Assembly: GCA_017441925.1 (NCBI GenBank)
Contig: JAFRUE010000016.1
Span: 5,269-69,268, forward strand
Direction of reading: 5' to 3'
Origin: Bacillota bacterium
GTDB taxonomy: Bacteria > Bacillota > Clostridia > Lachnospirales > Bianqueaceae
DNA: 64,000 nucleotides
Shown here: positions 3,466-61,172 of the stretch, in pieces
How the letters are laid out: each line of letters opens with the position of its first letter
Position numbering within the stretch: position 1 is the stretch's first letter
Program-made: the position numbers and the translations under genes
The notes under the pieces: model-generated
What the model was told of the DNA's origin: nothing
The model's input: the letters and a program-made list of their open reading frames with translations, nothing else
The model's database searches: none

Positions 3466-4548
3466 TCAGATCTCCACAAAGCGCGGAAGCTTCTCCGCGT
3501 TCTGTTTATGTGCCTCGTCCATGACGATCATCTGCTTCATGATCTGCTCATGCGTGATCGGGAACGGCGTACCCTTGTCCATCATGTCGTAGAAGGCACG
3601 ATAGAACGCAAGGCCCTTGTACTGTCCATCGTTTGCCTCAAGGCCCTCCGCTGTCCACTCCTCTTCGTGGAAGGTCAGCTTCTCCGAGCAGTACATCGGC
3701 GCGCCGTCTTCTTTGCGGAGCGTCTCCAGCGTCAGCTTCTGCGGCTTCTGTTCAGCCTCCACATAATACTTCCACTCCAGATGCTTCGTGTTGCCGTGCA
3801 GCGTGCCGCGCGTTCCCTGGATCAGATACTGATCATGCGGGAAAGCATTGGTGGACGTGATTTCCACATCACCGACCGGAGCTCCGGGAGCGGTGAGAAG
3901 CATTTTAACATAATCCTCCGCATCGCCGTACGTATGCGCTCTGTCGAAAACAGCCCTGACTTCGATACCCTCCGGGAAACCCATCAGATCCAGCGTCTGA
4001 TCGACCGGATGCGGTCCCGTGTTGAAAAGACTGCCGCCCTGCATCGCCTGTACCGTCTGCCAGTCCCAGCGCCTGCCGAATCCGTCGTAATTCGCGGTGA
4101 TCTGTAGGATGCGTCCGAGCACGCCGGAGGCTATAACGTCTTTGATCTTAATAAACGACGGCGAGAAGCGGTACTGCTGGAAGACGTAATAGAACCTGCC
4201 TGTCTTCTCGCTGGCTTCCAGGATCTTCGCGAACTGCTCCGTCCCGTTCGCGGCCGGCTTCTCCGACAGCACATTGAATCCGTGTTCCATCAGATCGATG
4301 GAGATCGGCCCGTGATCTTTGCTGTATGACGCGTTGATCACGAAATCCAGATCCGTCCTGTCGAAAAGCTCCTTGTAATCCGCGCAGACTTCGGCATCCG
4401 TCTCTTTGCGGATCATCTCGCGGCGTCCGGCGTCTTCATCCACGATCGCCACGATCTCATACAGATCCGGCAGCTGCTTCAACAGTCCGACATGGATATC
4501 GCGGCCGCTCCGTCCGTACCCGATAATTGCCACCCGATACTTCTTCAT
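3466..4548 (-). CDS. Gfo/Idh/MocA family oxidoreductase
   Basis: 360 aa. N-terminal Rossmann motif VAIIGYGRSGRDIH, EKP motif (LSEKPAA), typical family length. Confidence 0.85.
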   Translation of the reverse strand: MKKYRVAIIGYGRSGRDIHVGLLKQLPDLYEIVAIVDEDAGRREMIRKETDAEVCADYKELFDRTDLDFVINASYSKDHGPISIDLMEHGFNVLSEKPAANGTEQFAKILEASEKTGRFYYVFQQYRFSPSFIKIKDVIASGVLGRILQITANYDGFGRRWDWQTVQAMQGGSLFNTGPHPVDQTLDLMGFPEGIEVRAVFDRAHTYGDAEDYVKMLLTAPGAPVGDVEITSTNAFPHDQYLIQGTRGTLHGNTKHLEWKYYVEAEQKPQKLTLETLRKEDGAPMYCSEKLTFHEEEWTAEGLEANDGQYKGLAFYRAFYDMMDKGTPFPITHEQIMKQMIVMDEAHKQNAEKLPRFVEI

Positions 4549-11453: not shown

Positions 11454-11507
11454 TTTATAATCTCTTTTCGGATCAAGCTATTTTCGATTTGTATACTATA
11501 ATCTTTA

Positions 11508-12701
11508 TTAATGGCACCTCTTGCAAGGTTCATATCCTCTCTCAACTGCTTCATCATAAGAAATCGGAATACAACTGTTCTTAAGGCTAGAACACCATGC
11601 TTCATGATATTTAGAGCCTGTGTTCGTTATATATACGATTCTGCCTTCCAATGGTTCCTGTGCCGGTCCTTTCTCCGGAGCGCCTGTGTCTTCTGAACCA
11701 GTTTCATACACTATAAGGGTTTCCCCTTCCTCCTTCACAGGATCAGGCTCTGAAGCAGGAGTCGGTTCTTCTGTTACTACTTCTTTAGTTTCTTCAATTG
11801 GTTCTTCTATCGGTTCCTCCATCACTTCTTTTGTCGGTTCTTCTATTACTTCTTCAGATGCTTCTTCCGCCTGCTTTTCTGTCGTCTCCAGTTCATATAC
11901 AGATTCCACAGATGATTCCGAAACAGCTGCAATCTCTGCAGTCGATTCTTCTGTAATAATTACTGCCTGTTCTGGTTGATAAGATGCTTCCTGAGAACTT
12001 TCTATCAAGATAGAATTCTCGTTTGAAATTACATCTTCTGTTTGAATGGATCTCTCTATATTTTCACTGTTTTCAACTACAATAAGCTCAAAGGATTCTT
12101 CTTTTGATTCTTTTGCAGAGCTATTTTCCAACAAAACAGCTGGAGTTATTCCTCTCATCATAGAATCCTCTGTATTCTCTCCGGAAGATTCCGAAACTGC
12201 TGTACTATCGACAGATTGAGTTGTCGATTTATCCTGACTCGGATAAAAAGCGATAGCTGCTACTAATAATATAACGCATATAATAATTATTGATGATCTG
12301 TTATTTATACTGTCTGGCAAATAACCCATGATACGATTTCTGAGAGGTGACACCAATAAAGCCAGCAATGCAAAAGCTAGAATAGGTATTATTGCACCAG
12401 ATGATAGTATAGATAAAGCGGAAACAGCAAAAAAGCCACAACCAATCCAACTCCAGATTTTTTTAGCTTTCAACCTATCTCTTTGAGATCGTTCAGTTTT
12501 TACCGGCCGGTCCTCAGGAACGGTTGTACTTACATACGACAATCCTGTACCCGGAATTCCTGCTGATTTTGTTTTCTTGCCGCTTGAATGCATTGTGTAA
12601 TGCAAGCCTTTAGTTCCAATTGTAGTACTGATACCTTTTTTACCGATATTCAGCTTCGCTTCTTTACCAATCTTTATATTTCTCTTAAATCGCAGTCCCA
12701 T
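11508..12701 (-). CDS. DUF4236 domain membrane protein with acidic low-complexity region and C-terminal Cys/His motif
   Basis: N-terminus MGLRFKRNIKIGKEAKLNIGKKGISTTIGTKGLHY...GIPGTGLSY matches the DUF4236 signature. Two TM segments follow, then a Glu/Pro/Thr-rich repeat region. C-terminus is GSKYHEAWCSSL...GYEPCKRCH. About 35% GC. Confidence 0.75.
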   Translation of the reverse strand: MGLRFKRNIKIGKEAKLNIGKKGISTTIGTKGLHYTMHSSGKKTKSAGIPGTGLSYVSTTVPEDRPVKTERSQRDRLKAKKIWSWIGCGFFAVSALSILSSGAIIPILAFALLALLVSPLRNRIMGYLPDSINNRSSIIIICVILLVAAIAFYPSQDKSTTQSVDSTAVSESSGENTEDSMMRGITPAVLLENSSAKESKEESFELIVVENSENIERSIQTEDVISNENSILIESSQEASYQPEQAVIITEESTAEIAAVSESSVESVYELETTEKQAEEASEEVIEEPTKEVMEEPIEEPIEETKEVVTEEPTPASEPDPVKEEGETLIVYETGSEDTGAPEKGPAQEPLEGRIVYITNTGSKYHEAWCSSLKNSCIPISYDEAVERGYEPCKRCH

Positions 12702-12769
12702 GTCAACGTCTCCTAATACTATGCCTTAATACTTTACGTTTCCCAAAGCTTTACTGTTTATCAGTTCTT

Positions 12770-13501
12770 TTAAACATTATCTGGACTCTCTTTTTTCTCC
12801 AGTTCATTCATATATCCGGCAGTTATTATACCTGCCGGCAAAGCAACTATTGCAATTCCAAACACTGACGACACCATGGTTACAATTCTGCCGAGTACAG
12901 AAACTGGATAAATATCTCCATAACCTACCGTAGTCAACGAAACCGTCGCCCAGTAAACAGCATCAAAGAAAGTATCAAAAGAGTCTGGCTCAACATTAAA
13001 AATCAAAAGTGCCGAAACAAGTATATACCCACCGGCCAACACGCAGACAGCAATCAAGGAATTCTTCGATGATCGGAGTACATTTCCTATTATTGCAAAG
13101 CTTTTCGAATACCTCATGGTTTTGAAAGCCCGAACAACGCGTAATGCACGAATCATTCGTAATACACGAAGCAGTTTAAAACTGCTGCTAACAATAGTTA
13201 AAGACGGCAATATAGATAGCAGATCTATGATCGCCATCAGTGAAAAAGGATATCTTATAAATGAAAAAACACTGTTATTTTCAAATTTATAATCTGCTGT
13301 AATCCACCGCAGCAAATAATCAATTATAAATACTACTACAGCAGCTTTATCTATAATTAGGAAGAAGTTATTCTCTATTTTAAAAGCCAGCGGAATCAGA
13401 CTTAAAACGATCATAACTATCATGAAAACATCATATACTTTACTCAACCGATCATTTCCGGCTGACTTTTCAATGATCTCAAAAATACGTTTTCGGCTCA
13501 T
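12770..13501 (-). CDS. voltage-gated-type potassium channel (6-TM ion transport protein)
   Basis: S4-like LLRVLRMIRALRVVRAFKTMR and selectivity filter TTVGYGD. 243 aa, low GC. Confidence 0.88.
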   Translation of the reverse strand: MSRKRIFEIIEKSAGNDRLSKVYDVFMIVMIVLSLIPLAFKIENNFFLIIDKAAVVVFIIDYLLRWITADYKFENNSVFSFIRYPFSLMAIIDLLSILPSLTIVSSSFKLLRVLRMIRALRVVRAFKTMRYSKSFAIIGNVLRSSKNSLIAVCVLAGGYILVSALLIFNVEPDSFDTFFDAVYWATVSLTTVGYGDIYPVSVLGRIVTMVSSVFGIAIVALPAGIITAGYMNELEKKESPDNV

Positions 13502-14029
13502 CTTATCATAGCTCCTTCGTTTGTGTCAAAAAAGGCTTTTCTGATACATTTATAATATGAAAATGGAGAAAGGTTTTTCTCTCTTTATTCGGTTCAAATA
13601 TATATTTCTACTGAACTCAAGCTCTTCCAACTCACCTATGCAAGAATTTATATCTGAATACTATTCTGATACTTCTCACAGTCATCCTTTTGTCATTACT
13701 ATATTTTGTAATTATAGTATACCACAATTATACAATAAAATACGCAGTAATTCTGAATCGACTTCACTATTTTTTAGGAAAAATCAAGTAATGGTAAATA
13801 CACTACTATGAGATTTTCTATACAGATATACTTTCTATCAATAGAAAGTCCAGTGAAAAGCAGTTTTTTGAGACTTGACGAAAAACCTGATTTATAATTA
13901 TAATAACTAGAAGATATGATAATGTCTATCATGCTACCAAAGATAATCTTTTACGTAATAACTGGTATGAACTGTATAGCACGACAGGGAAACACCTGTC
14001 ATAAATCATTTCAATAGGAGGTCATCATT

Positions 14030-41258: not shown

Positions 41259-42821
41259 ATGGCAGACATTTACACCAATCCCATTCTGAAGGGTGATTAT
41301 TCCGATCCTGACGTGATCCGTGTCGGGAACGATTTCTACATGACGAGTTCGTCGTTCACGTATTTCCCGGGCATGCCCATCCTGCATTCAACGGATCTGG
41401 TCCACTGGGAGCATATCGGGTACGCCGCGCAGTCGCTCCCCTTCCCCGCGTACGAGAACACCAACCACAAAAAAGGCACCTGGGCGCCTTGCATCCGGTA
41501 CCATAACGGGACGTTCTATGTATATGTATGCGCACCAGACGAAGGACTGCTGGCCTTTACGGCCTCTGACCCGGCCGGCCCGTGGCGGATGACACACGCG
41601 GCGAACGAGACCGGCTGGATCGATCCGACGGTGCTTTTTGACGATGACGGTTCCGTCTGGCTGGTCCACGCCTGGGCGAGAAGCCGGGCTGCCATCGATT
41701 CACGTCTGTATCTGCACCGGATGAACGCGAACGGCACCAAGGTCATTGACGGAGGTGTCGAGATCTTCCACGAAGAGAAAAGGCACCCCACGACGGAAGG
41801 TCCCAAGATCTACAAGCGAAACGACTATTACTATATCATGAGTCCTGCCGGCGGCGTCAAAACCGGCTGGCAGCTAATCCTGCGCTCCCGGAATATCGAG
41901 GGGCCCTACGATGAAAAAATCGTGCTGCACCAGGGGACCACGGACGTGAACGGTCCGCATCAGGGCGGATGGGTGGATACACCTTACGGCGAAGACTATT
42001 TCATCCATTTCCAGGATGTGTATCCGTACGGCCGCATCCCGCATCTGCAGCCGGTGAAGTGGGTCGATGACTGGCCGCTGATGGGCACTAATCAGGACGC
42101 GGACGGCTGCGGTGAACCCGTGAAGGAGGCTCCGATGCCCAAAGGTCTTCCCGTCACGGAGCCGAAGATCTATACTTCGGACGATTTTACTGGGGACAGA
42201 CTCGGTCTGCAGTGGCAATGGCAGGCAAATCCCCGTACGGAATGGTACAGCCTGACCGAGAATCCTGGCGCCCTGCGGCTCAATACCTGCCGGATCCCCC
42301 GGACAGGGACACTTTTCCACGCGGGAAACTTCCTGTCGCAGCTGATGCAGTCCTTTGATTTTACATGGACAGTCAAGGTCGATCTGCATGCGAAAGAGCC
42401 CGGCGATCGGGCCGGTATCGCCGTGATGGGCTACCGGTATCATTATCTGGCGGTCGAAGCAGGCCGGGACGGATATGTTCTGAAATTGGTCGACGGCGAA
42501 GCGCAGGATATGCCGCGCGGTTATGTCGAGCAGGTGACGGAAAGCGCGGCCGAAGAAGCGCCGCTTGCATCCGGCACTGTGACGCTGCGGATGACCGTCC
42601 GGAGCGATTTTGCCGGCGAGCATCCGCGGATGTTTGTTCAGTATTCTTACAATGAAGACGGCATCACCTTCCGGAATATCGGATCCGAGCGCGAAGGCTT
42701 CGCCGGCGGTTGGACCGGCGCGCGGCCCGGCATCTTCGCGGCGAATTTCCGCGGCAAGGTCAGCCCGGGTTACGCAGACTTTTATCATCTGACTGTAGAG
42801 CCGCTGCTCTCGTTGTGCTGA
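41259..42821 (+). CDS. glycoside hydrolase family 43 (beta-xylosidase/alpha-L-arabinofuranosidase) with C-terminal beta-sandwich domain
   Basis: NPILKGDYSDPDVIRVGNDFYMTSSSF, TWAPCIRYHNGTFYVY, TEGPKIYKRNDYYYI. Confidence 0.9.
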   Translation: MADIYTNPILKGDYSDPDVIRVGNDFYMTSSSFTYFPGMPILHSTDLVHWEHIGYAAQSLPFPAYENTNHKKGTWAPCIRYHNGTFYVYVCAPDEGLLAFTASDPAGPWRMTHAANETGWIDPTVLFDDDGSVWLVHAWARSRAAIDSRLYLHRMNANGTKVIDGGVEIFHEEKRHPTTEGPKIYKRNDYYYIMSPAGGVKTGWQLILRSRNIEGPYDEKIVLHQGTTDVNGPHQGGWVDTPYGEDYFIHFQDVYPYGRIPHLQPVKWVDDWPLMGTNQDADGCGEPVKEAPMPKGLPVTEPKIYTSDDFTGDRLGLQWQWQANPRTEWYSLTENPGALRLNTCRIPRTGTLFHAGNFLSQLMQSFDFTWTVKVDLHAKEPGDRAGIAVMGYRYHYLAVEAGRDGYVLKLVDGEAQDMPRGYVEQVTESAAEEAPLASGTVTLRMTVRSDFAGEHPRMFVQYSYNEDGITFRNIGSEREGFAGGWTGARPGIFAANFRGKVSPGYADFYHLTVEPLLSLC

Positions 42822-42823
42822 TT

Positions 42824-43042
42824 GCGGCGGTAAAAATTTCATAAATGCTGTTTTTTACCGCCGGTTTTGGGCTCTGATGGCTGAACAGATTCGAAAAAAT
42901 GGCTTATTTTCAGCCAGTTCTGCTTGGGTCGGCAGAATAATTCAATAAATTCACTGATTTTTCTGCCAGGGGGCCCCATTTTGAGTCTTAATGACCTAAA
43001 TCTGGCGGTAAAATAAAGAAAAATAGGCGTTTTTACCGCCAC
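42824..43042 (+). repeat. multi-hairpin intergenic repeat element, copy A
   Basis: Four inverted repeats: GGCGGTAAAAA 42826-36 / TTTTTACCGCC 42852-62; GGCTGAA 42879-85 / TTCAGCC 42909-15; GGCAGAA 42931-37 / TTCTGCC 42961-67; GGCGGTAAAA 43004-13 / TTTTACCGCC 43031-40. The same architecture recurs at 60874-61082. Confidence 0.8.
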
Positions 43043-43124
43043 AGTCCGGCAAAAGTGTCCCCGGACACATCCGGCGCTATCACACCATCAACCACAATCA
43101 TTCATCACCCATAATCACTGCACC

Positions 43125-49004: not shown

Positions 49005-50398
49005 AACGGCAGGATCTCGCTGACGGTCGGATGCGGGAAGACCGTACGGTCCAGATCCGCGAGAGTGCCGCGCGCTCCGATCAGGACCCCGAGCGGTCCG
49101 ATCATCTCGGACGCGTGGGGACACAGAAGATGCGCACCGAGGAGACGTTCTGTCCCCTCTTCATACACAAGCAGGGAGAAACCGCGTCCGGCGCCTTCGA
49201 TCACGGCCTTGGCGTTCGCGGATGTCAGCTGCTTGCGGGTCTTGACCGCGAAGCCGGCTTCTTTGGCCTGTTCCGCCGTCATTCCGACAGACGCGATCTC
49301 CGGCTGCGTAAAGACACAGGACGGGATCAGGGACAGATCTTTGCCCTCTCCGGAACCGAACATGTGCCAAACCGCCCGGGCGGCCTCTGCCTCCGCTGCA
49401 TGCGCAAGCTGCAGCCCGCCGGCAACGATATCGCCGACCGCAAAGATTCCGGGGATCTGTGTCTCATACGTGACAGGATCGGCCGGAATATAGCCCCGCA
49501 CCATTGCGAGTTTCTCTGCGATCTCTTCCGCGAAAAGACCGTCCGTCACCGGGCGTCTGCCCGTGCAGATCAGGACGAGATCCGCCGGGACCTGTCCCTG
49601 ATTACCCTTTTTATCCGTAAAAACGACCTCGAGCGGCTCACCCTTCCGGATCTCGGACACCATCGCGTTCACCTGCACGTCCGCTCCGGCTTTCTTAAGA
49701 GAAGACGCAAGGCTCTGCCCAAAATCCTTATCCATATTGGCAAGGAGCCTCGGAAGTGCCTCAAGGACCGTCACTTTCGAACCGAGATTGGTGAAAAACG
49801 CTGAAAATTCCGCTCCGATGACGCCGCCGCCGATGATGACGACACGCTCGGGGAGCTTTTCGATTCCGGCAAGCAGCACGTCCGAATTGCAGACACCGTG
49901 AAGATCGCTTCCGGGGATCGGAGGCGCAGCCGGTTTGGAACCGGTACAGACAAGCAGATGAGAAGCCTTATAGACTGCGGTTTCCGCTTTACTGTCCCCG
50001 GCCGGGTCATCAGCCGTCACACTGACGGTATCCGGAGCAAGGACTTTCGCTGTGCCGCGCACGACCTGAATCTTCAGTCTCTTCAGACGGTCCTCGAGAG
50101 CTGTCCGCAGGGACAGGATCGTTTCTGCCGCGTTCGCGTACATTGCCGACAGATCATACGCTGCCTGTACAGGGACGCCGAGCTCTGTTCCGTGATCCGC
50201 AAGCTCCCGGTACAGCCCGGAAGAACGCAGCAAAGCTTTTGTCGGAATACATCCGCGGTTCAGGCAGGTCCCGCCAAGCAGATCTTTCTCGATAAGCAGG
50301 ACCGACTTGCCGGCGGACGCGGCTTCCACAGCGGCTTTAGTCCCGGCGGGCCCTCCGCCGGCGATAACAAGATCATAGATCTGATCACAAGTATTCAT
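49001..50398 (-). CDS. lpdA: dihydrolipoyl dehydrogenase (glycine cleavage L protein)
   Basis: GGGPAG FAD motif, redox-active GGTCLNRGCIPTK, C-terminal HAHPT-like HPHPT. 465 aa. Confidence 0.92.
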   Translation of the reverse strand: MNTCDQIYDLVIAGGGPAGTKAAVEAASAGKSVLLIEKDLLGGTCLNRGCIPTKALLRSSGLYRELADHGTELGVPVQAAYDLSAMYANAAETILSLRTALEDRLKRLKIQVVRGTAKVLAPDTVSVTADDPAGDSKAETAVYKASHLLVCTGSKPAAPPIPGSDLHGVCNSDVLLAGIEKLPERVVIIGGGVIGAEFSAFFTNLGSKVTVLEALPRLLANMDKDFGQSLASSLKKAGADVQVNAMVSEIRKGEPLEVVFTDKKGNQGQVPADLVLICTGRRPVTDGLFAEEIAEKLAMVRGYIPADPVTYETQIPGIFAVGDIVAGGLQLAHAAEAEAARAVWHMFGSGEGKDLSLIPSCVFTQPEIASVGMTAEQAKEAGFAVKTRKQLTSANAKAVIEGAGRGFSLLVYEEGTERLLGAHLLCPHASEMIGPLGVLIGARGTLADLDRTVFPHPTVSEILPL

Positions 50399-51524
50399 GA
50401 ACGATGTCCTCCCATAAGATATTCAGGTCGTGTATCAGGGTCTCCGGCTGCAATATGCCGGCATTACTCAGCCTGTCAGGCTTCAGGTCCGTAAAAATGT
50501 CCCGCAGTGCTTCGCCCGTAAAAGGTCTCCCGGCCGTAAACCGCGTCATGATCTCCGAAACGGCCGGCGCGATGCCGGTATCCAGTGCGTCCGTATAAAG
50601 CCGGACCCTGCGGCATCTCCCGCGCGCCGCTGAAATCTCCAGACTCGCGGTGCCCCAGGAGAAACGCATCTCCCGGCTGCGCGCCGAGGCCGGAGGTTCG
50701 CTCCCGTAAAGCCATTCCGGTGAGGCCAGCCGCTCAGCGAACGCCTGTATCTCTGCCTCTTTCGGATAAAACGGGATATCTGCGGGGTCGGAAGCGCCGG
50801 CCAGAACAGAACTGTCCCCTTCTGCGCCATATTCCCGGCAAAAAGCCGCTGCCAGCGCTGCTTCAAGTTTCTCCAGCGTCAGCTTCGGCTCGAGCTCTTT
50901 CAGATTGACCACACGGGACCGGACCGAAGCGACTCCGCTGCCTGCGAGCTTCGCGGATCCGGGGGTCAGATAGCGGGACAGATCCTGCATCGAAAGCGAC
51001 AGGAGCAATGTCCCGTGATGGCAGTGCCGCGGTCCGTCCTGATAGAACGCGTTCCCGGAGACTTTGCGTCGGGATCCGTCCGGCAGCAGCGTTTCCAGAT
51101 CGTTCCGCCCGGATACTTCCGCCCGGATTCCCAGCGACTCCAATGCCGCGCGGATCACGGACATCTGACGCGGAATGTTATACAGCGGCTCGGCCGCGAT
51201 AAACGAGAAGTTCAGGTTCCCCGGATCGTGATAGACCGCTCCGCCGCCCGAAAATCTCCTCACCGCAAGGATCCCGTCCGCCTGCATGGCCTGCAGACTG
51301 CATTCGCGCTGCAGATTCTGGTTGCGGCCGATGATCACGGACCGGCCGTTTTGCCACAGATACAGCAGAACTGTCCCCGCCGGAACGTTTTCCGTGAGAA
51401 GATGCTCCACCGCCAGGTTGCGGTATGGGTCCAGCCCGTCCGTTATAAGCAGGAAAGGCCGGCAGTCCTCTCCCCGCGCAAGAGCGGAGCCGGGGCGGCC
51501 AGCCTTCATAAGATCAGAAGTCAT
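50385..51524 (-). CDS. lplA: lipoate--protein ligase
   Basis: 379 aa. DPYRNLAVEHLL, RRFSGGGAVYHDPGNLNFS, GNAFY..HHGTLL motifs. Confidence 0.88.
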   Translation of the reverse strand: MTSDLMKAGRPGSALARGEDCRPFLLITDGLDPYRNLAVEHLLTENVPAGTVLLYLWQNGRSVIIGRNQNLQRECSLQAMQADGILAVRRFSGGGAVYHDPGNLNFSFIAAEPLYNIPRQMSVIRAALESLGIRAEVSGRNDLETLLPDGSRRKVSGNAFYQDGPRHCHHGTLLLSLSMQDLSRYLTPGSAKLAGSGVASVRSRVVNLKELEPKLTLEKLEAALAAAFCREYGAEGDSSVLAGASDPADIPFYPKEAEIQAFAERLASPEWLYGSEPPASARSREMRFSWGTASLEISAARGRCRRVRLYTDALDTGIAPAVSEIMTRFTAGRPFTGEALRDIFTDLKPDRLSNAGILQPETLIHDLNILWEDIVHEYL

Positions 51525-55931: not shown

Positions 55932-56085
55932 GTATATGACCTGAAAGATTCTCCCGGATCTCTCCGGAATTGCTTCTTCGGTACCGCGGTAATCGCGAAT
56001 CTCCTGAGTGTCGTCAGCAATCCGGTCCTTTTGCCTGAGAGTTTTTGCCCCTTCGGCGCCTAAGCTGGCCTCTCCCGGCTGCCTC
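55932..56085 (-). promoter_or_regulatory. tandem glycine riboswitch
   Basis: Minus strand, aptamer 1: GGGAGAGGCC...GCGCCGAAGGGGCAAAAACUCUCAGGCAAAAGGAC. Aptamer 2: CUCAGGAGA...GUACCGAAGAAGCAAUUCCGGAGAG. Both are canonical glycine-aptamer cores. Confidence 0.88.
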
Positions 56086-56120
56086 ATCCGACTGACTGTA
56101 TTCAGTTTTTCCACAGAAGC

Positions 56121-56223: not shown

Positions 56224-56240
56224 CGATTCAATTCCATACT

Positions 56241-56518
56241 AAAAGGCTATGAAGAGAAGAGTAGTCTGCACAGGGCCTTACAGAGAGCACCCGGCCGGTG
56301 AGAGGGGCAAGGAGCATGCAGATGAAATACGTCTCGGAGCTACGTCCCGAACGCGTCCTTACAGGCGTCAGTAGGCGGCGACGGGAGGGCAGCCGTTATC
56401 TGTGCCAGGGTATTTATCAGACAGTACCTGCAGAGGCGTCCGGTGTGAGCCGGGCGTGAACTAAGGTGGTTTCACGGGAATCATACTCCCGTCCTTAACG
56501 GACGGGAGTTTTATTTTT
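56241..56518 (+). promoter_or_regulatory. T-box leader (tyrosine specifier) with terminator
   Basis: Stem I AGAGAAGAGUAG region. Specifier-loop GAAAUACG with UAC at 56328-56330. T-box sequence AAGGUGGUUUCACGGG (56463-56478). Terminator ACTCCCGTCC-ttaac-GGACGGGAGT followed by TTTTATTTTT (56485-56518). Confidence 0.88.
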
Positions 56519-60301: not shown

Positions 60302-60721
60302 ATGAAAGATCCGAATTGTGCTTATTGTATGGAAGGCGAGCTGCTCGCCCAGTTTGGCATCAAGATCTGCGAACTGGAAGCAGGTATCCTCTATCTTTTT
60401 AAGGAACAGAGCCATCCCGGCCGCGTCATCGTCGCGACCAAGCGCCATCTGAACGACATCGTCGATATGACCGATGAAGAGCGCACCGCGTTCTTCGGAG
60501 ACGTCGCGCATGTATCCGCGGCTCTGCAGAAGGTCTTCCATCCCGACAAAGTCAACTACGGCATGTACAACGACAAGGGCGGCCATTTCCACGTCCATAT
60601 GGTCCCCAAATACAAAGATCAGTATGAATGGGGTACCGTTTTTGAGATGAACCCCGGCAAAACGCTCCTCTCCGACGCGGAGTACGACGAGCTGATCGCC
60701 AAGATCAAAGCCGCTCTGTAA
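60302..60721 (+). CDS. HIT (histidine triad) family protein
   Basis: 139 aa from the ATG at 60302 (RBS GGAGAAAGG). Histidine triad GGHFHVHMVPK. Confidence 0.88.
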   Translation: MKDPNCAYCMEGELLAQFGIKICELEAGILYLFKEQSHPGRVIVATKRHLNDIVDMTDEERTAFFGDVAHVSAALQKVFHPDKVNYGMYNDKGGHFHVHMVPKYKDQYEWGTVFEMNPGKTLLSDAEYDELIAKIKAAL

Positions 60722-60873
60722 GGCAGCGCAGCTTTGATGCCGGCGCAGATCGAAGGAATGCAGGCAGTTTCGGCCCTGCAAGTCGGCATGGATCAGACCA
60801 TTGCCGACAGTTTCGCATCACCGCCGGGCCATTTCGCATCGAAACTGCAGAACTGTCCCTGGCAGGCCGGGCT

Positions 60874-61082
60874 GTGGCGGTAAAAGCGCCTTCTTTTTCA
60901 ATTTTTACCGCCATTCGGGCTGAAAAAAGCATCAAGAAACCGCTGATTTCACTATTTTTGATGCCGATTCGTGTCACTGCGGCAGAACAAATGGCGAAAT
61001 CAGCGGTTTTTTCTGCCGACAAGGCCAAAATCCAGTGAAAACTGGCAGTAAAAATCGAGCTTTTCCTGTTTTTTACCGCCGC
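60874..61082 (+). repeat. multi-hairpin intergenic repeat element, copy B
   Basis: GGCGGTAAAA 60876-85 / TTTTTACCGCC 60902-12; GGCTGAAAAAA 60918-28 with GCATCAA 60929-35 / TTGATGC 60958-64; GGCAGAA 60981-87 / TTCTGCC 61011-17; GGCAGTAAAAA 61044-54 / TTTTTACCGCC 61070-80. Confidence 0.8.
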
Positions 61083-61172
61083 AACCAACACAAGGCAACC
61101 TTATAAGACAACGAGAGCTTGCGAAAAACGGCCGATCCGTTTCCGCAAGCTCATTTTCTGTCCGCAAGCTGT

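Follow-up and report, generated by a model that had tools for sequence, protein, structure and literature searches.

Does the multi-hairpin element near the right end of a 64,000-nucleotide stretch from a Bacillota bacterium (GenBank assembly GCA_017441925.1, contig JAFRUE010000016.1, positions 5,269 to 69,268 of the forward strand; hereafter the window) act as a folded RNA, or do its selected properties reside in the DNA itself? A preliminary description, made from the sequence alone, had placed this element at window positions 60874-61082, had called it copy B of an element that also occurs as copy A in the same window, and had pointed to a 14-nt complementarity between two of its loops as an alternative or pseudoknot-like fold. 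Our analysis favors the DNA. With a probability of roughly 0.6, copy B is one member of a family of ~250-bp intergenic repeats that are dispersed, non-coding and specific to their lineage, and whose selected properties lie in the duplex and not in RNA, and we classify the element as a DNA-level repeat that resembles repetitive extragenic palindromic (REP) sequences and bacterial interspersed mosaic elements (BIMEs) or transposable elements of the miniature inverted-repeat type (MITEs), with a new architecture.

Copy B is a member of a sizeable family. Scanning metagenome contigs for one 37-nt unit of the element returned 34 loci, almost all of them from JAEEG* assemblies (fetched loci are numbered here from L027 to L118), and about 15 or more distinct loci carry full elements whose end units, termed L and R, lie 168-199 bp apart. 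The element is a polar array of two to four dyad-symmetric 37-bp units, i.e. L, R and zero to two inner units, and measures 205-236 bp from L to R or about 250 bp including its flanks. L and R have common arms (GGCGGTAAAA/TTTTACCGCC, identical 10-11-mers) and distinct, conserved 17-bp centres, with the L-type loop consensus GCGCCTATTTTT being kept in 15/15 elements and the R-unit loop following the consensus AACAGCATTTATGAA. Inner units employ arms such as GGCTGAA/TTCAGCC, which differ from those of the end units by changes on both sides, so that pair 4-34 is G-C, T-A or A-T and pair 6-32 is T-A or A-T. The left flank of the family, GCCGGRCTGT, follows GAACTGTCCC or the reverse complement of this 10-mer, and GCAAYCARCACAAGG forms the right flank. 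Full-length forms of an outer terminal inverted repeat, GAACTGTCCC(TTG)/(CAA)GGGACAGTTC, occur in L060 and L117, the other copies having truncated ones, and the element centre is often unalignable between family members. The window has four exact matches to the 10-mer GAACTGTCCC or its complement (17111, 50809, 51368 and 60850) where about 0.12 would be expected, two of them falling within one gene (50385-51524, minus strand).

Orthologous copies are kept in strains of 91-100% identity (L062, L074, L081-L091, L093, L099-L102), and a third element copy lies ~1.7 kb past the window end (L066, L074). Protein look-ups trace the window to ruminant gastrointestinal metagenomes (ENA XIEF21), where contig k141_1206465 matches it at 99.98% identity; the nearest named relative of the GH43 protein encoded in the window, at 56% identity, comes from Christensenellales. 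An exact-hairpin scan of 185,579 species representatives gave 46 matches, all single, from unrelated phyla and with no second unit nearby, most of them being fully paired terminator-like hairpins. The family in this dialect is thus not represented in the reference genomes. Element matches were also absent from IMG/VR, the INPHARED phages and the PLSDB plasmids.

The evidence that carries our reading is the helical phasing of the array, measured by parameter-free Fourier and tract-phase statistics. The search pattern fixed the L and R stems and left the spacing free, so the quantisation of spacings is no artefact of the way in which copies were gathered. Every unit measures 37 bp, and within elements the unit starts fall at 0, 42/43, 52/53, 63, 73, 105, 125/126, 137, 145/146, 168, 178/179, 188-190 and 199 bp. 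When periods from 7 to 16 bp were scanned, the 27 adjacent unit spacings gave a best period of 10.4-10.5 bp (Rayleigh R = 0.92-0.94), which was reached by 0/5000 random sets, with R ≤0.22 at 10 or 11 bp. Linker lengths are quantised as well, at about 5, 15, 26 and 36 nt.

Base composition follows the same period. The mean A/T power spectrum of 16 elements shows one sharp peak at 10.5 bp, with a power of 22.8 compared to ≤2.2 in shuffles, and the centre without the L and R units retains a significant 10.5-bp A/T signal in every element (≤3/1000 shuffles), in phase with the L unit even where an inner unit is unrecognisable. Tracts of A4+ or T4+ number about ten per element against a background of 1.3 per 215 bp; their centres are coherent at 10.5 bp (R about 0.8), A- and T-tracts sharing one phase. 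A sliding scan of the window ranks copy B (23.2) first and copy A (20.5) second among all 10.5-bp peaks, with the next peak at 9.9 and the 99th percentile at 7.7, and the 654 kb of other loci contain hardly any high peaks outside elements. A period of 10.5 bp belongs to B-DNA, not to A-form RNA, and as neither the periodicity nor the quantised linkers have an RNA rationale, both speak against an RNA element. Judging from unit starts that are integer turns apart and tracts in a single phase, the sites, which are of a dimer type, would all face one side of a curved stretch of ~20 turns.

A single non-family sequence in the 654 kb scanned has a comparable signal. It lies at L027 3191-3390, in an uncultured Eubacteriales metagenome-assembled genome, where unrelated, strong 10.5-bp A-tract phasing (power 17.7) is formed by CAAAA-type tracts that surround a GGCGGTAAAAAA...TTTTTTACCGCC terminator hairpin with complete pairing.

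The anatomy of copy B given in the preliminary description withstood this comparison. Family membership supports the view that copy B is the second copy of a genuine repeated element that forms several hairpins, and both strands fold far better than shuffles (z = -6.2 and -5.4). Hairpins 1, 3 and 4 are clean 37-nt palindromic units (Table 1), and the fourth stem carries one A.C mismatch (GGCAG versus CCGCC). The L074 orthologue has GGCGG where copy B has GGCAG in the R-unit arm, and the mismatch is thus a recent G>A change. Hairpin 2 is remodelled as proposed, with the GGCTGAAAAAA arm at 60918-60928 and GCATCAA (60929-35) pairing with TTGATGC (60958-64), and the two 14-nt segments are exact reverse complements of each other.

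What found no support is the reading of this loop-loop complementarity as an alternative or pseudoknot RNA fold. The complementarity is restricted to copy B and its orthologues: comparable pairing between inner-unit loops was found in 0/15 other elements (the L092 dialect element at the copy-B site plus 14 family members that are not orthologous to copy B), so that the outcome named in the preliminary description as refuting the fold has largely come about, and in 1/3 copy-B orthologous lineages the pairing is broken without compensation (L074: GAATTCAGCGGTTT), while it is intact in L093. The 14-nt match forms the core of an inverted repeat with 33-nt arms that are 82% complementary (60934-60966 / 60980-61012); shuffling the 131-nt centre 2000 times gave perfect inverted repeats of at most 12 nt. 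Furthermore, the reverse complement of unit 60981-61017 matches 60918-60966 at 30/37 positions with one 11-nt gap, corresponding to one helical turn. The centre of copy B is thus a 100-nt imperfect palindrome produced by duplication of an inner unit in inverted orientation, and since unit centres are asymmetric and the two copies are oppositely oriented, their loops are complementary by construction. Judged by these alignments, the 14-nt complementarity is a by-product of an inverted inner-unit duplication within copy B.

The correspondence between the two copies in the window needed revision in one respect. The hairpins are shared as claimed, but copy A is inverted relative to copy B, with an alignment score to the plus strand of B of 105 for the minus strand of A and 40 for its plus strand (shuffles ≤18). 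Hairpin 1 of copy B therefore matches hairpin 4 of copy A, and hairpin 4 of copy B matches hairpin 1 of copy A.

Table 1 Coordinates of copies B and A and of their parts in the window; offsets are counted from the start of the respective L unit.
Feature	Position	Strand	Sequence and remarks
Copy B, whole element	about 60850-61095	+	Conserved sequence continues past the limits 60874-61082 given first
Copy B, left flank, form I	60850-60875	+	GAACTGTCCC + TGGCAG + GCCGGGCTGT; upstream of the L unit in most family members
Copy B, L unit (hairpin 1)	60876-60912	+	37 bp, dyad-symmetric; GGCGGTAAAA-GCGCCTTCTTTTTCAAT-TTTTACCGCC, N17 centre
Copy B, degenerate inner unit (hairpin 2)	60918-60966	+	Inverted paralogue of 60981-61017 with an 11-nt insertion; offset 42 bp (4.0 helical turns)
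Copy B, 14-nt complementarity, 5' half	60937-60950	+	AAACCGCTGATTTC
Copy B, inner unit 3 (hairpin 3)	60981-61017	+	GGCAGAACAAATGGCGAAATCAGCGGTTTTTTCTGCC; arms GGCAGAACAAA.../...TTTTTTCTGCC; offset 105 bp (10.0 turns)
Copy B, 14-nt complementarity, 3' half	60996-61009	+	GAAATCAGCGGTTT
Copy B, R unit (hairpin 4)	61044-61080	+	GGCAGTAAAA-ATCGAGCTTTTCCTGTT-TTTTACCGCC; single A.C mismatch; offset 168 bp (16.0 turns)
Copy B, right flank	61081-61095	+	GCAACCAACACAAGG; kept after the R unit in nearly all copies
Copy A, hairpin span	42826-43040	-	About 43068-42811 with flanks
Copy A, left flank, form II	43041-43068	-	GTGTCCGGGGACACTTTT + GCCGGACTGT
Copy A, L unit	43004-43040	-	
Copy A, inner unit	42931-42967	-	GGCAGAAAAATCAGTG...; offset 73 bp (7 turns)
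Copy A, inner unit	42879-42915	-	GGCTGAAAATAAGCC...; offset 125 bp (12 turns)
Copy A, R unit	42826-42862	-	Offset 178 bp (17 turns)
Copy A, right flank	42811-42825	-	GCAATCAGCACAACG

The elements do not code for protein. Neither the open reading frames (ORFs) of 54 aa (plus strand) and 128 aa (minus strand) over copy B nor the 67-aa ORF over copy A are conserved; a start codon is missing in most copies, no reading frame is open in more than 1/15 copies, and the codon-usage model built from the window predicts no gene over the elements. As had been suspected, the two minus-strand ORFs (128 aa, 60705-61091; 67 aa, 42839-43042) exist as artefacts of the palindromes and share AVK...FTA because the palindrome arms read GCG GTA AAA / TTT ACC GCC. 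Amphipathic-helix coding as a source of a ~10.5-nt periodicity is ruled out along with coding. Two further assignments were rejected on architecture. An intrinsic terminator does not fit stems with A/T toward the loop, loops of 15-17 nt and no T-run afterwards, and a terminator scan finds none. A CRISPR array does not fit either, given that only the 10-nt arms repeat, the centres differ, linkers range from 5 to 36 nt and each locus has 2-4 units.

All elements are intergenic, and their placement is biased. At the 13 loci with both flanks called, the flanking genes are convergent in six, tandem in seven and divergent in none, while convergent junctions make up 6/55 (about 11%) in the window. 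Copy B lies between two convergent genes, a HIT-family gene and a 101-aa ORF, and sits between the HIT stop codon and a plus-strand intrinsic terminator (61115-61159). Copy A is placed between the convergent genes GH43 and ridA, where, on the plus strand, the GH43 gene takes its last codons (…L S L C) and its TGA stop (42819-42821) from the right flank of the element. In the relatives L099 (4046-4200), L100 and L101, about 90-137 bp more DNA separates the GH43 stop from the element, and the GH43 protein has 515-517 aa as opposed to 520 aa in the window; from these differences, a deletion joined the window GH43 gene to the repeat (42807-42825).

The ridA/GH43 junction also illustrates presence and absence of the element. 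The element is present in all lineages of ≥87% nucleotide identity to the window, while in L103-L105 (83-86% identity, same synteny) the junction consists of 109 bp with one terminator and no unit, which represents either an empty site or a clean loss. In the copy-B orthologue of L093, an insertion sequence (IS) with an rve-family integrase (1420-2115) interrupts the R-unit loop at a point corresponding to window ~61060. Within the sequence of the fetched loci, no autonomous IS sharing the element ends turned up.

Several arrays use other arm sequences within the same architecture. In L092, from a species ~88% identical, the site orthologous to copy B carries the dialect GGCGGTATAT.../...GTACCGCC at 3576-3855, with units at 0, 53 and 179 bp and about 243 bp for a fourth; this array has no blastn similarity to copy B except for a common AAAAATCGAG in the third unit. 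L118 holds four GGCGGTATAAAA-type units (3954-4231) at 0, 63, 189 and 241 with an A/T power of 16.8, and the copy-B right-flank module, reverse-complemented, adjoins this dialect element too. In L117, an array of about 430 bp (2526-2955) consists of GGCTGAA/TTCAGCC units spaced 52, 63, 53 and 63, is flanked by GAACTGTCCC on one side and GGGACAGTTC on the other, and stops about 40 bp short of the ATG of the ORF269 homologue described below. All three arrays show 37-bp units, integer-turn spacing and significant 10.5-bp A/T power (3/3).

Further repeats and small changes lie next to the copies or their orthologues. The 128 bp from the HIT stop codon to copy B (60722-60849) contain the inverted repeats GCAGTTTCG / CGAAACTGC and GACAGTTTCGCA / TGCAGAACTGTC and hold TTTCGCATC twice; this stretch is kept in sister strains and missing in the related species of L092, and it may be an extension of the left end of copy B. 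At the right-flank point beside copy B, L074 has an 8-bp insertion (GCCGGCGT), and in L099 (4100-4200) the R end of the copy-A orthologue adjoins three tandem partial right-flank motifs (CACAAAGG with GGCCGNC). Judging from these changes, the right junction of the element appears to be unstable.

A protein family accompanies some of the arrays. In L080/L078, a 269-aa ORF (ORF269; L080 1565-2374) lies between two directly oriented elements, and the L flank of the second element begins at the ORF stop codon. The ORF269 family has 4130 database matches of about 264 aa, annotated as 'hypothetical protein' in Lachnospiraceae, Eubacterium and others. Full-length homologues are found beside arrays in L118 (3001-3819, 53% identity) and L117 (3001-3786, 46% identity), so that full-length genes of this family lie within 300 bp of an array in 3/3 loci examined. 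Given the element density of the window, this association has a p of about 1e-3 and is, in view of the small sample, suggestive. Eleven viral loci with distant relatives of the C-domain have no such array, and the sequence of the fetched loci holds no further ORF269 homologue.

A confident AlphaFold model of ORF269 (predicted local distance difference test score, pLDDT, 91.8) shows long N-terminal helices followed by a C-terminal alpha/beta domain. Foldseek against the PDB returned nothing significant for this model (best E-value >0.1), with a weak likeness to restriction-endonuclease-like folds (probability ≤0.57). The C-domain is 34-43% identical to Pfam-unannotated tails of RecD/UvrD-like superfamily 1 (SF1) helicases and contains the invariant residues E154, SKSE158-161, E178, PDF196-198 and EH212-213. 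Its invariant E, D, E and H residues suggest that ORF269 may be a nuclease. A tentative reading, of rather low probability, is that the repeat and the ~265-aa family make up a so far undescribed cis/trans pair of gut and rumen Clostridia. In such a pair, a dimer would read both arms of each 37-bp unit, three helical turns apart, and arrays on one face of intrinsically curved DNA would assemble a wrapped nucleoprotein complex able to mobilise the element and, in resident copies, to organise DNA at gene 3' ends.

How might the phased array work? We infer that a sequence-specific protein, probably dimeric, binds the units, for which the uncharacterised ~265-aa family beside the elements is the candidate partner. 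Phased, pre-bent DNA would then wrap or loop and bring the L and R ends together, and gain and loss would proceed via a transpososome-like synapsis that tolerates integral-turn lengths only. Copies resident at gene 3' ends could act as fixed protein-wrapped or topological sites. That the architecture is kept at orthologous sites despite sequence turnover, together with the bias to convergent gene ends, suggests a host role for resident copies as well, to which gyrase at BIME-2 and the periodic gyrase motif (PMC6379681) offer the closest parallel. Within the DNA-level reading, we weigh the mobility-driven and the host-function sub-mechanisms about equally.

Several observations weigh against this reading. 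The filled (L099-L102, L110, L113-L114; L113 is a scaffold with an N-run) and empty (L103-L105) ridA/GH43 junctions are too diverged to align and no target-site duplication is legible, so the empty site could equally be a deletion. Strains of 91-100% identity show no insertion polymorphism at three loci, and non-orthologous copies never exceed about 80% identity, which leaves no sign of recent mobility. The invariance of the L and R stems carries no information because it was fixed by the search pattern. The protein association comes from three loci, and ORF269 has no recognisable transposase or DNA-binding fold and no Pfam, NCBIfam or PDB matches. Moreover, the elements are probably transcribed within 3' untranslated regions (UTRs), which leaves room for effects at the RNA level.

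Such effects are at the heart of the RNA alternative, in which the hairpins act in a transcript, be it as a small RNA or as a module of the 3' UTR that halts exonucleases or brings about termination, with the 14-nt loop-loop pairing of copy B adding an alternative or pseudoknot fold. The folding of both strands far beyond shuffles fits this alternative, as do the probable position of copy B in the HIT 3' UTR, between stop codon and terminator, and the two-sided changes by which inner units keep their pairing (pairs 4-34 and 6-32); for REP elements, as the closest analogue, a preprint reports a regulatory role in 3' UTRs (bioRxiv 10.64898/2026.03.23.713779). Against this alternative, no Rfam family matches at gathering or E-value thresholds, with only miRNA-hairpin (microRNA) noise below them, and the RNAalifold consensus of ten members comprises 20 pairs in just the two end hairpins with no compensatory change. 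The element contains no promoter-like site, and no conserved terminator follows the R unit. Relative to the genes next to them, sense and antisense placements of elements are about equally frequent, and stem mismatches are free of strand bias, A.C (three times) being as frequent as G.T (three times), the G.U of a transcript. The loop-loop complementarity is confined to copy B and explained by the inverted duplication, and the 10.5-bp A/T phasing with linkers of 5, 15, 26 and 36 nt is left without an RNA explanation. Taken together, we regard an RNA element as distinctly improbable.

A second alternative stays with the duplex but dispenses with mobility. By analogy with BIME-2 or strong gyrase sites, the element could be a chromosome-structure site of the host, bound or wrapped by gyrase or a nucleoid protein between convergent genes where positive supercoils accumulate, spread by ordinary duplication and kept by selection. 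The enrichment between convergent genes and absence between divergent ones would follow naturally, and so would the periodicity over about 20 turns, the dyad-symmetric ~37-bp units and the architecture kept at the orthologous site of L092 across species despite sequence turnover; the E. coli gyrase motif is itself symmetric and periodic (PMC6379681). We consider this rather unlikely, as it leaves the sequence-specific polar ends with their outer terminal inverted repeat, the adjoining orphan protein gene and the lineage dialects unexplained, and since the classical BIME-2 of E. coli (sucB-sucC) has no 10.5-bp A/T signal (power 0.1). The DNA-level repeat could finally be a chance collection of trivial palindromes, such as ordinary bidirectional terminators or low-complexity A/T-rich intergenic DNA, and most of the 46 exact GGCGGTAAAA...TTTTACCGCC reference matches are indeed single terminator-like hairpins. 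Units of always 37 bp with 17-nt centres that are unpaired yet conserved and different between L and R, conserved flanks, stems without a T-run after them, and about 15 or more loci with the full architecture and phasing leave practically no room for it; the family alignment and the periodicity statistics have already refuted this explanation.

Other parts of the window yielded observations unrelated to the repeat. A glycine riboswitch aptamer (56012-56087, minus strand) and a T-box leader upstream of a tyrosyl-tRNA synthetase gene (56240-56499, plus strand) both score above their Rfam gathering thresholds. At 11761-11889, at least seven tandem copies of a 12-nt period (GTCGGTTCTTCT-like) lie in a 2.6-kb stretch (11454-14029) in which the codon model calls no gene; this stretch is probably a repetitive, compositionally unusual coding region of the minus strand.

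With these data at hand, the family can be compared with known systems, of which REP, BIME and REPIN sequences with their REP-associated tyrosine transposases (RAYTs) from Enterobacteria and Pseudomonas (PMC2817692, PMC3116915, PMC3733652) come closest. Common to both are palindromic units of 20-40 bp in mosaic intergenic elements, many dispersed copies that often lie between convergent genes, species-specific dialects, a particular gene flanked by repeats, and use as an IS insertion target (here in L093; for REPs, PMC1525189). REP palindromes carry a GTAG or CGTC tetranucleotide at one end (PMC3733652), whereas units here lack such a tag, begin with GGCGG, GGCTG or GGCAG and are preceded by variable bases (TGT, TGC, TAC, GCT ...). 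Their stems span just 10-11 bp around conserved 15-17-nt centres, and the L and R ends are polar and mutually different. Units are regularly spaced, in whole helical turns, but in contrast to BIMEs their orientation does not alternate, as L and R have the same polarity and an inverted inner pair occurs in copy B only, and the strict 10.5-bp phasing has no counterpart in E. coli BIME-2. REPs flank a cognate Y1 (HUH) RAYT gene (PMC2817692), but the only gene found flanked among the fetched loci (L080 1565-2374) has neither a Y1_Tnp nor any other Pfam match. The putative cis/trans pair would be analogous to REP-RAYT with another enzyme and another DNA logic.

Bacterial MITEs and modular repeats such as Correia, RUP and the pneumococcal BOX elements (A-B(n)-C; PMC3184786) resemble the family in being non-coding, intergenic and under 300-450 bp, in their terminal inverted repeats and variable number of inner modules, and in presence or absence between related lineages, as at the ridA/GH43 junction. 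They differ in that no target-site duplication or autonomous IS was identified here and in that the centres can no longer be aligned although the architecture persists. The literature searched describes no helical phasing for these repeats, and searches on phased or curved bacterial intergenic repeats turned up no such family.

Precedents for a helical constraint come from transposition. Paramecium internal eliminated sequences (IESs) show a ~10-bp size periodicity (PMC3464196), phased AT-tracts were proposed to aid transpososome formation in ISY100 (PMC4132750), and the transposition of IS50 and IS1 depends on length in helical turns. The likeness lies in a length quantised in turns and in phased A/T tracts predicted to pre-bend the DNA for synapsis on one face. 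Those cases are experimental series or population size distributions of transposase-bearing or eukaryotic elements, whereas here the phasing is built into each non-autonomous bacterial copy and governs the internal palindromic units too. As to strong gyrase sites, the E. coli motif is symmetric over 130 bp, its flanks, with a G/C period of ~10.75 bp, enclosing a 36-bp central part, and enrichment of gyrase sites is described for BIME-2 and for positions downstream of operons with high transcription (PMC6379681). A symmetric ~36-bp core, periodic flanks and a position downstream of transcription units are thus shared, but the gyrase motif is degenerate where the ends here are specific, and the 10.5-bp period here resides in A/T tracts over >200 bp.

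If our reading is correct, the elements would be curved, protein-wrapping DNA modules at gene ends whose architecture is kept despite changes of the recognition sequence; an orphan family with >4000 database relatives would be their partner and gain a testable function; and a new model for end synapsis in short mobile DNA, and for its co-option for chromosome topology, would follow. REP, BIME and MITE sequences are usually read via hairpins of RNA or single-stranded DNA, whereas the family described here carries the signature of the double helix and amounts, in effect, to a natural helical-twist experiment within a bacterial genome.

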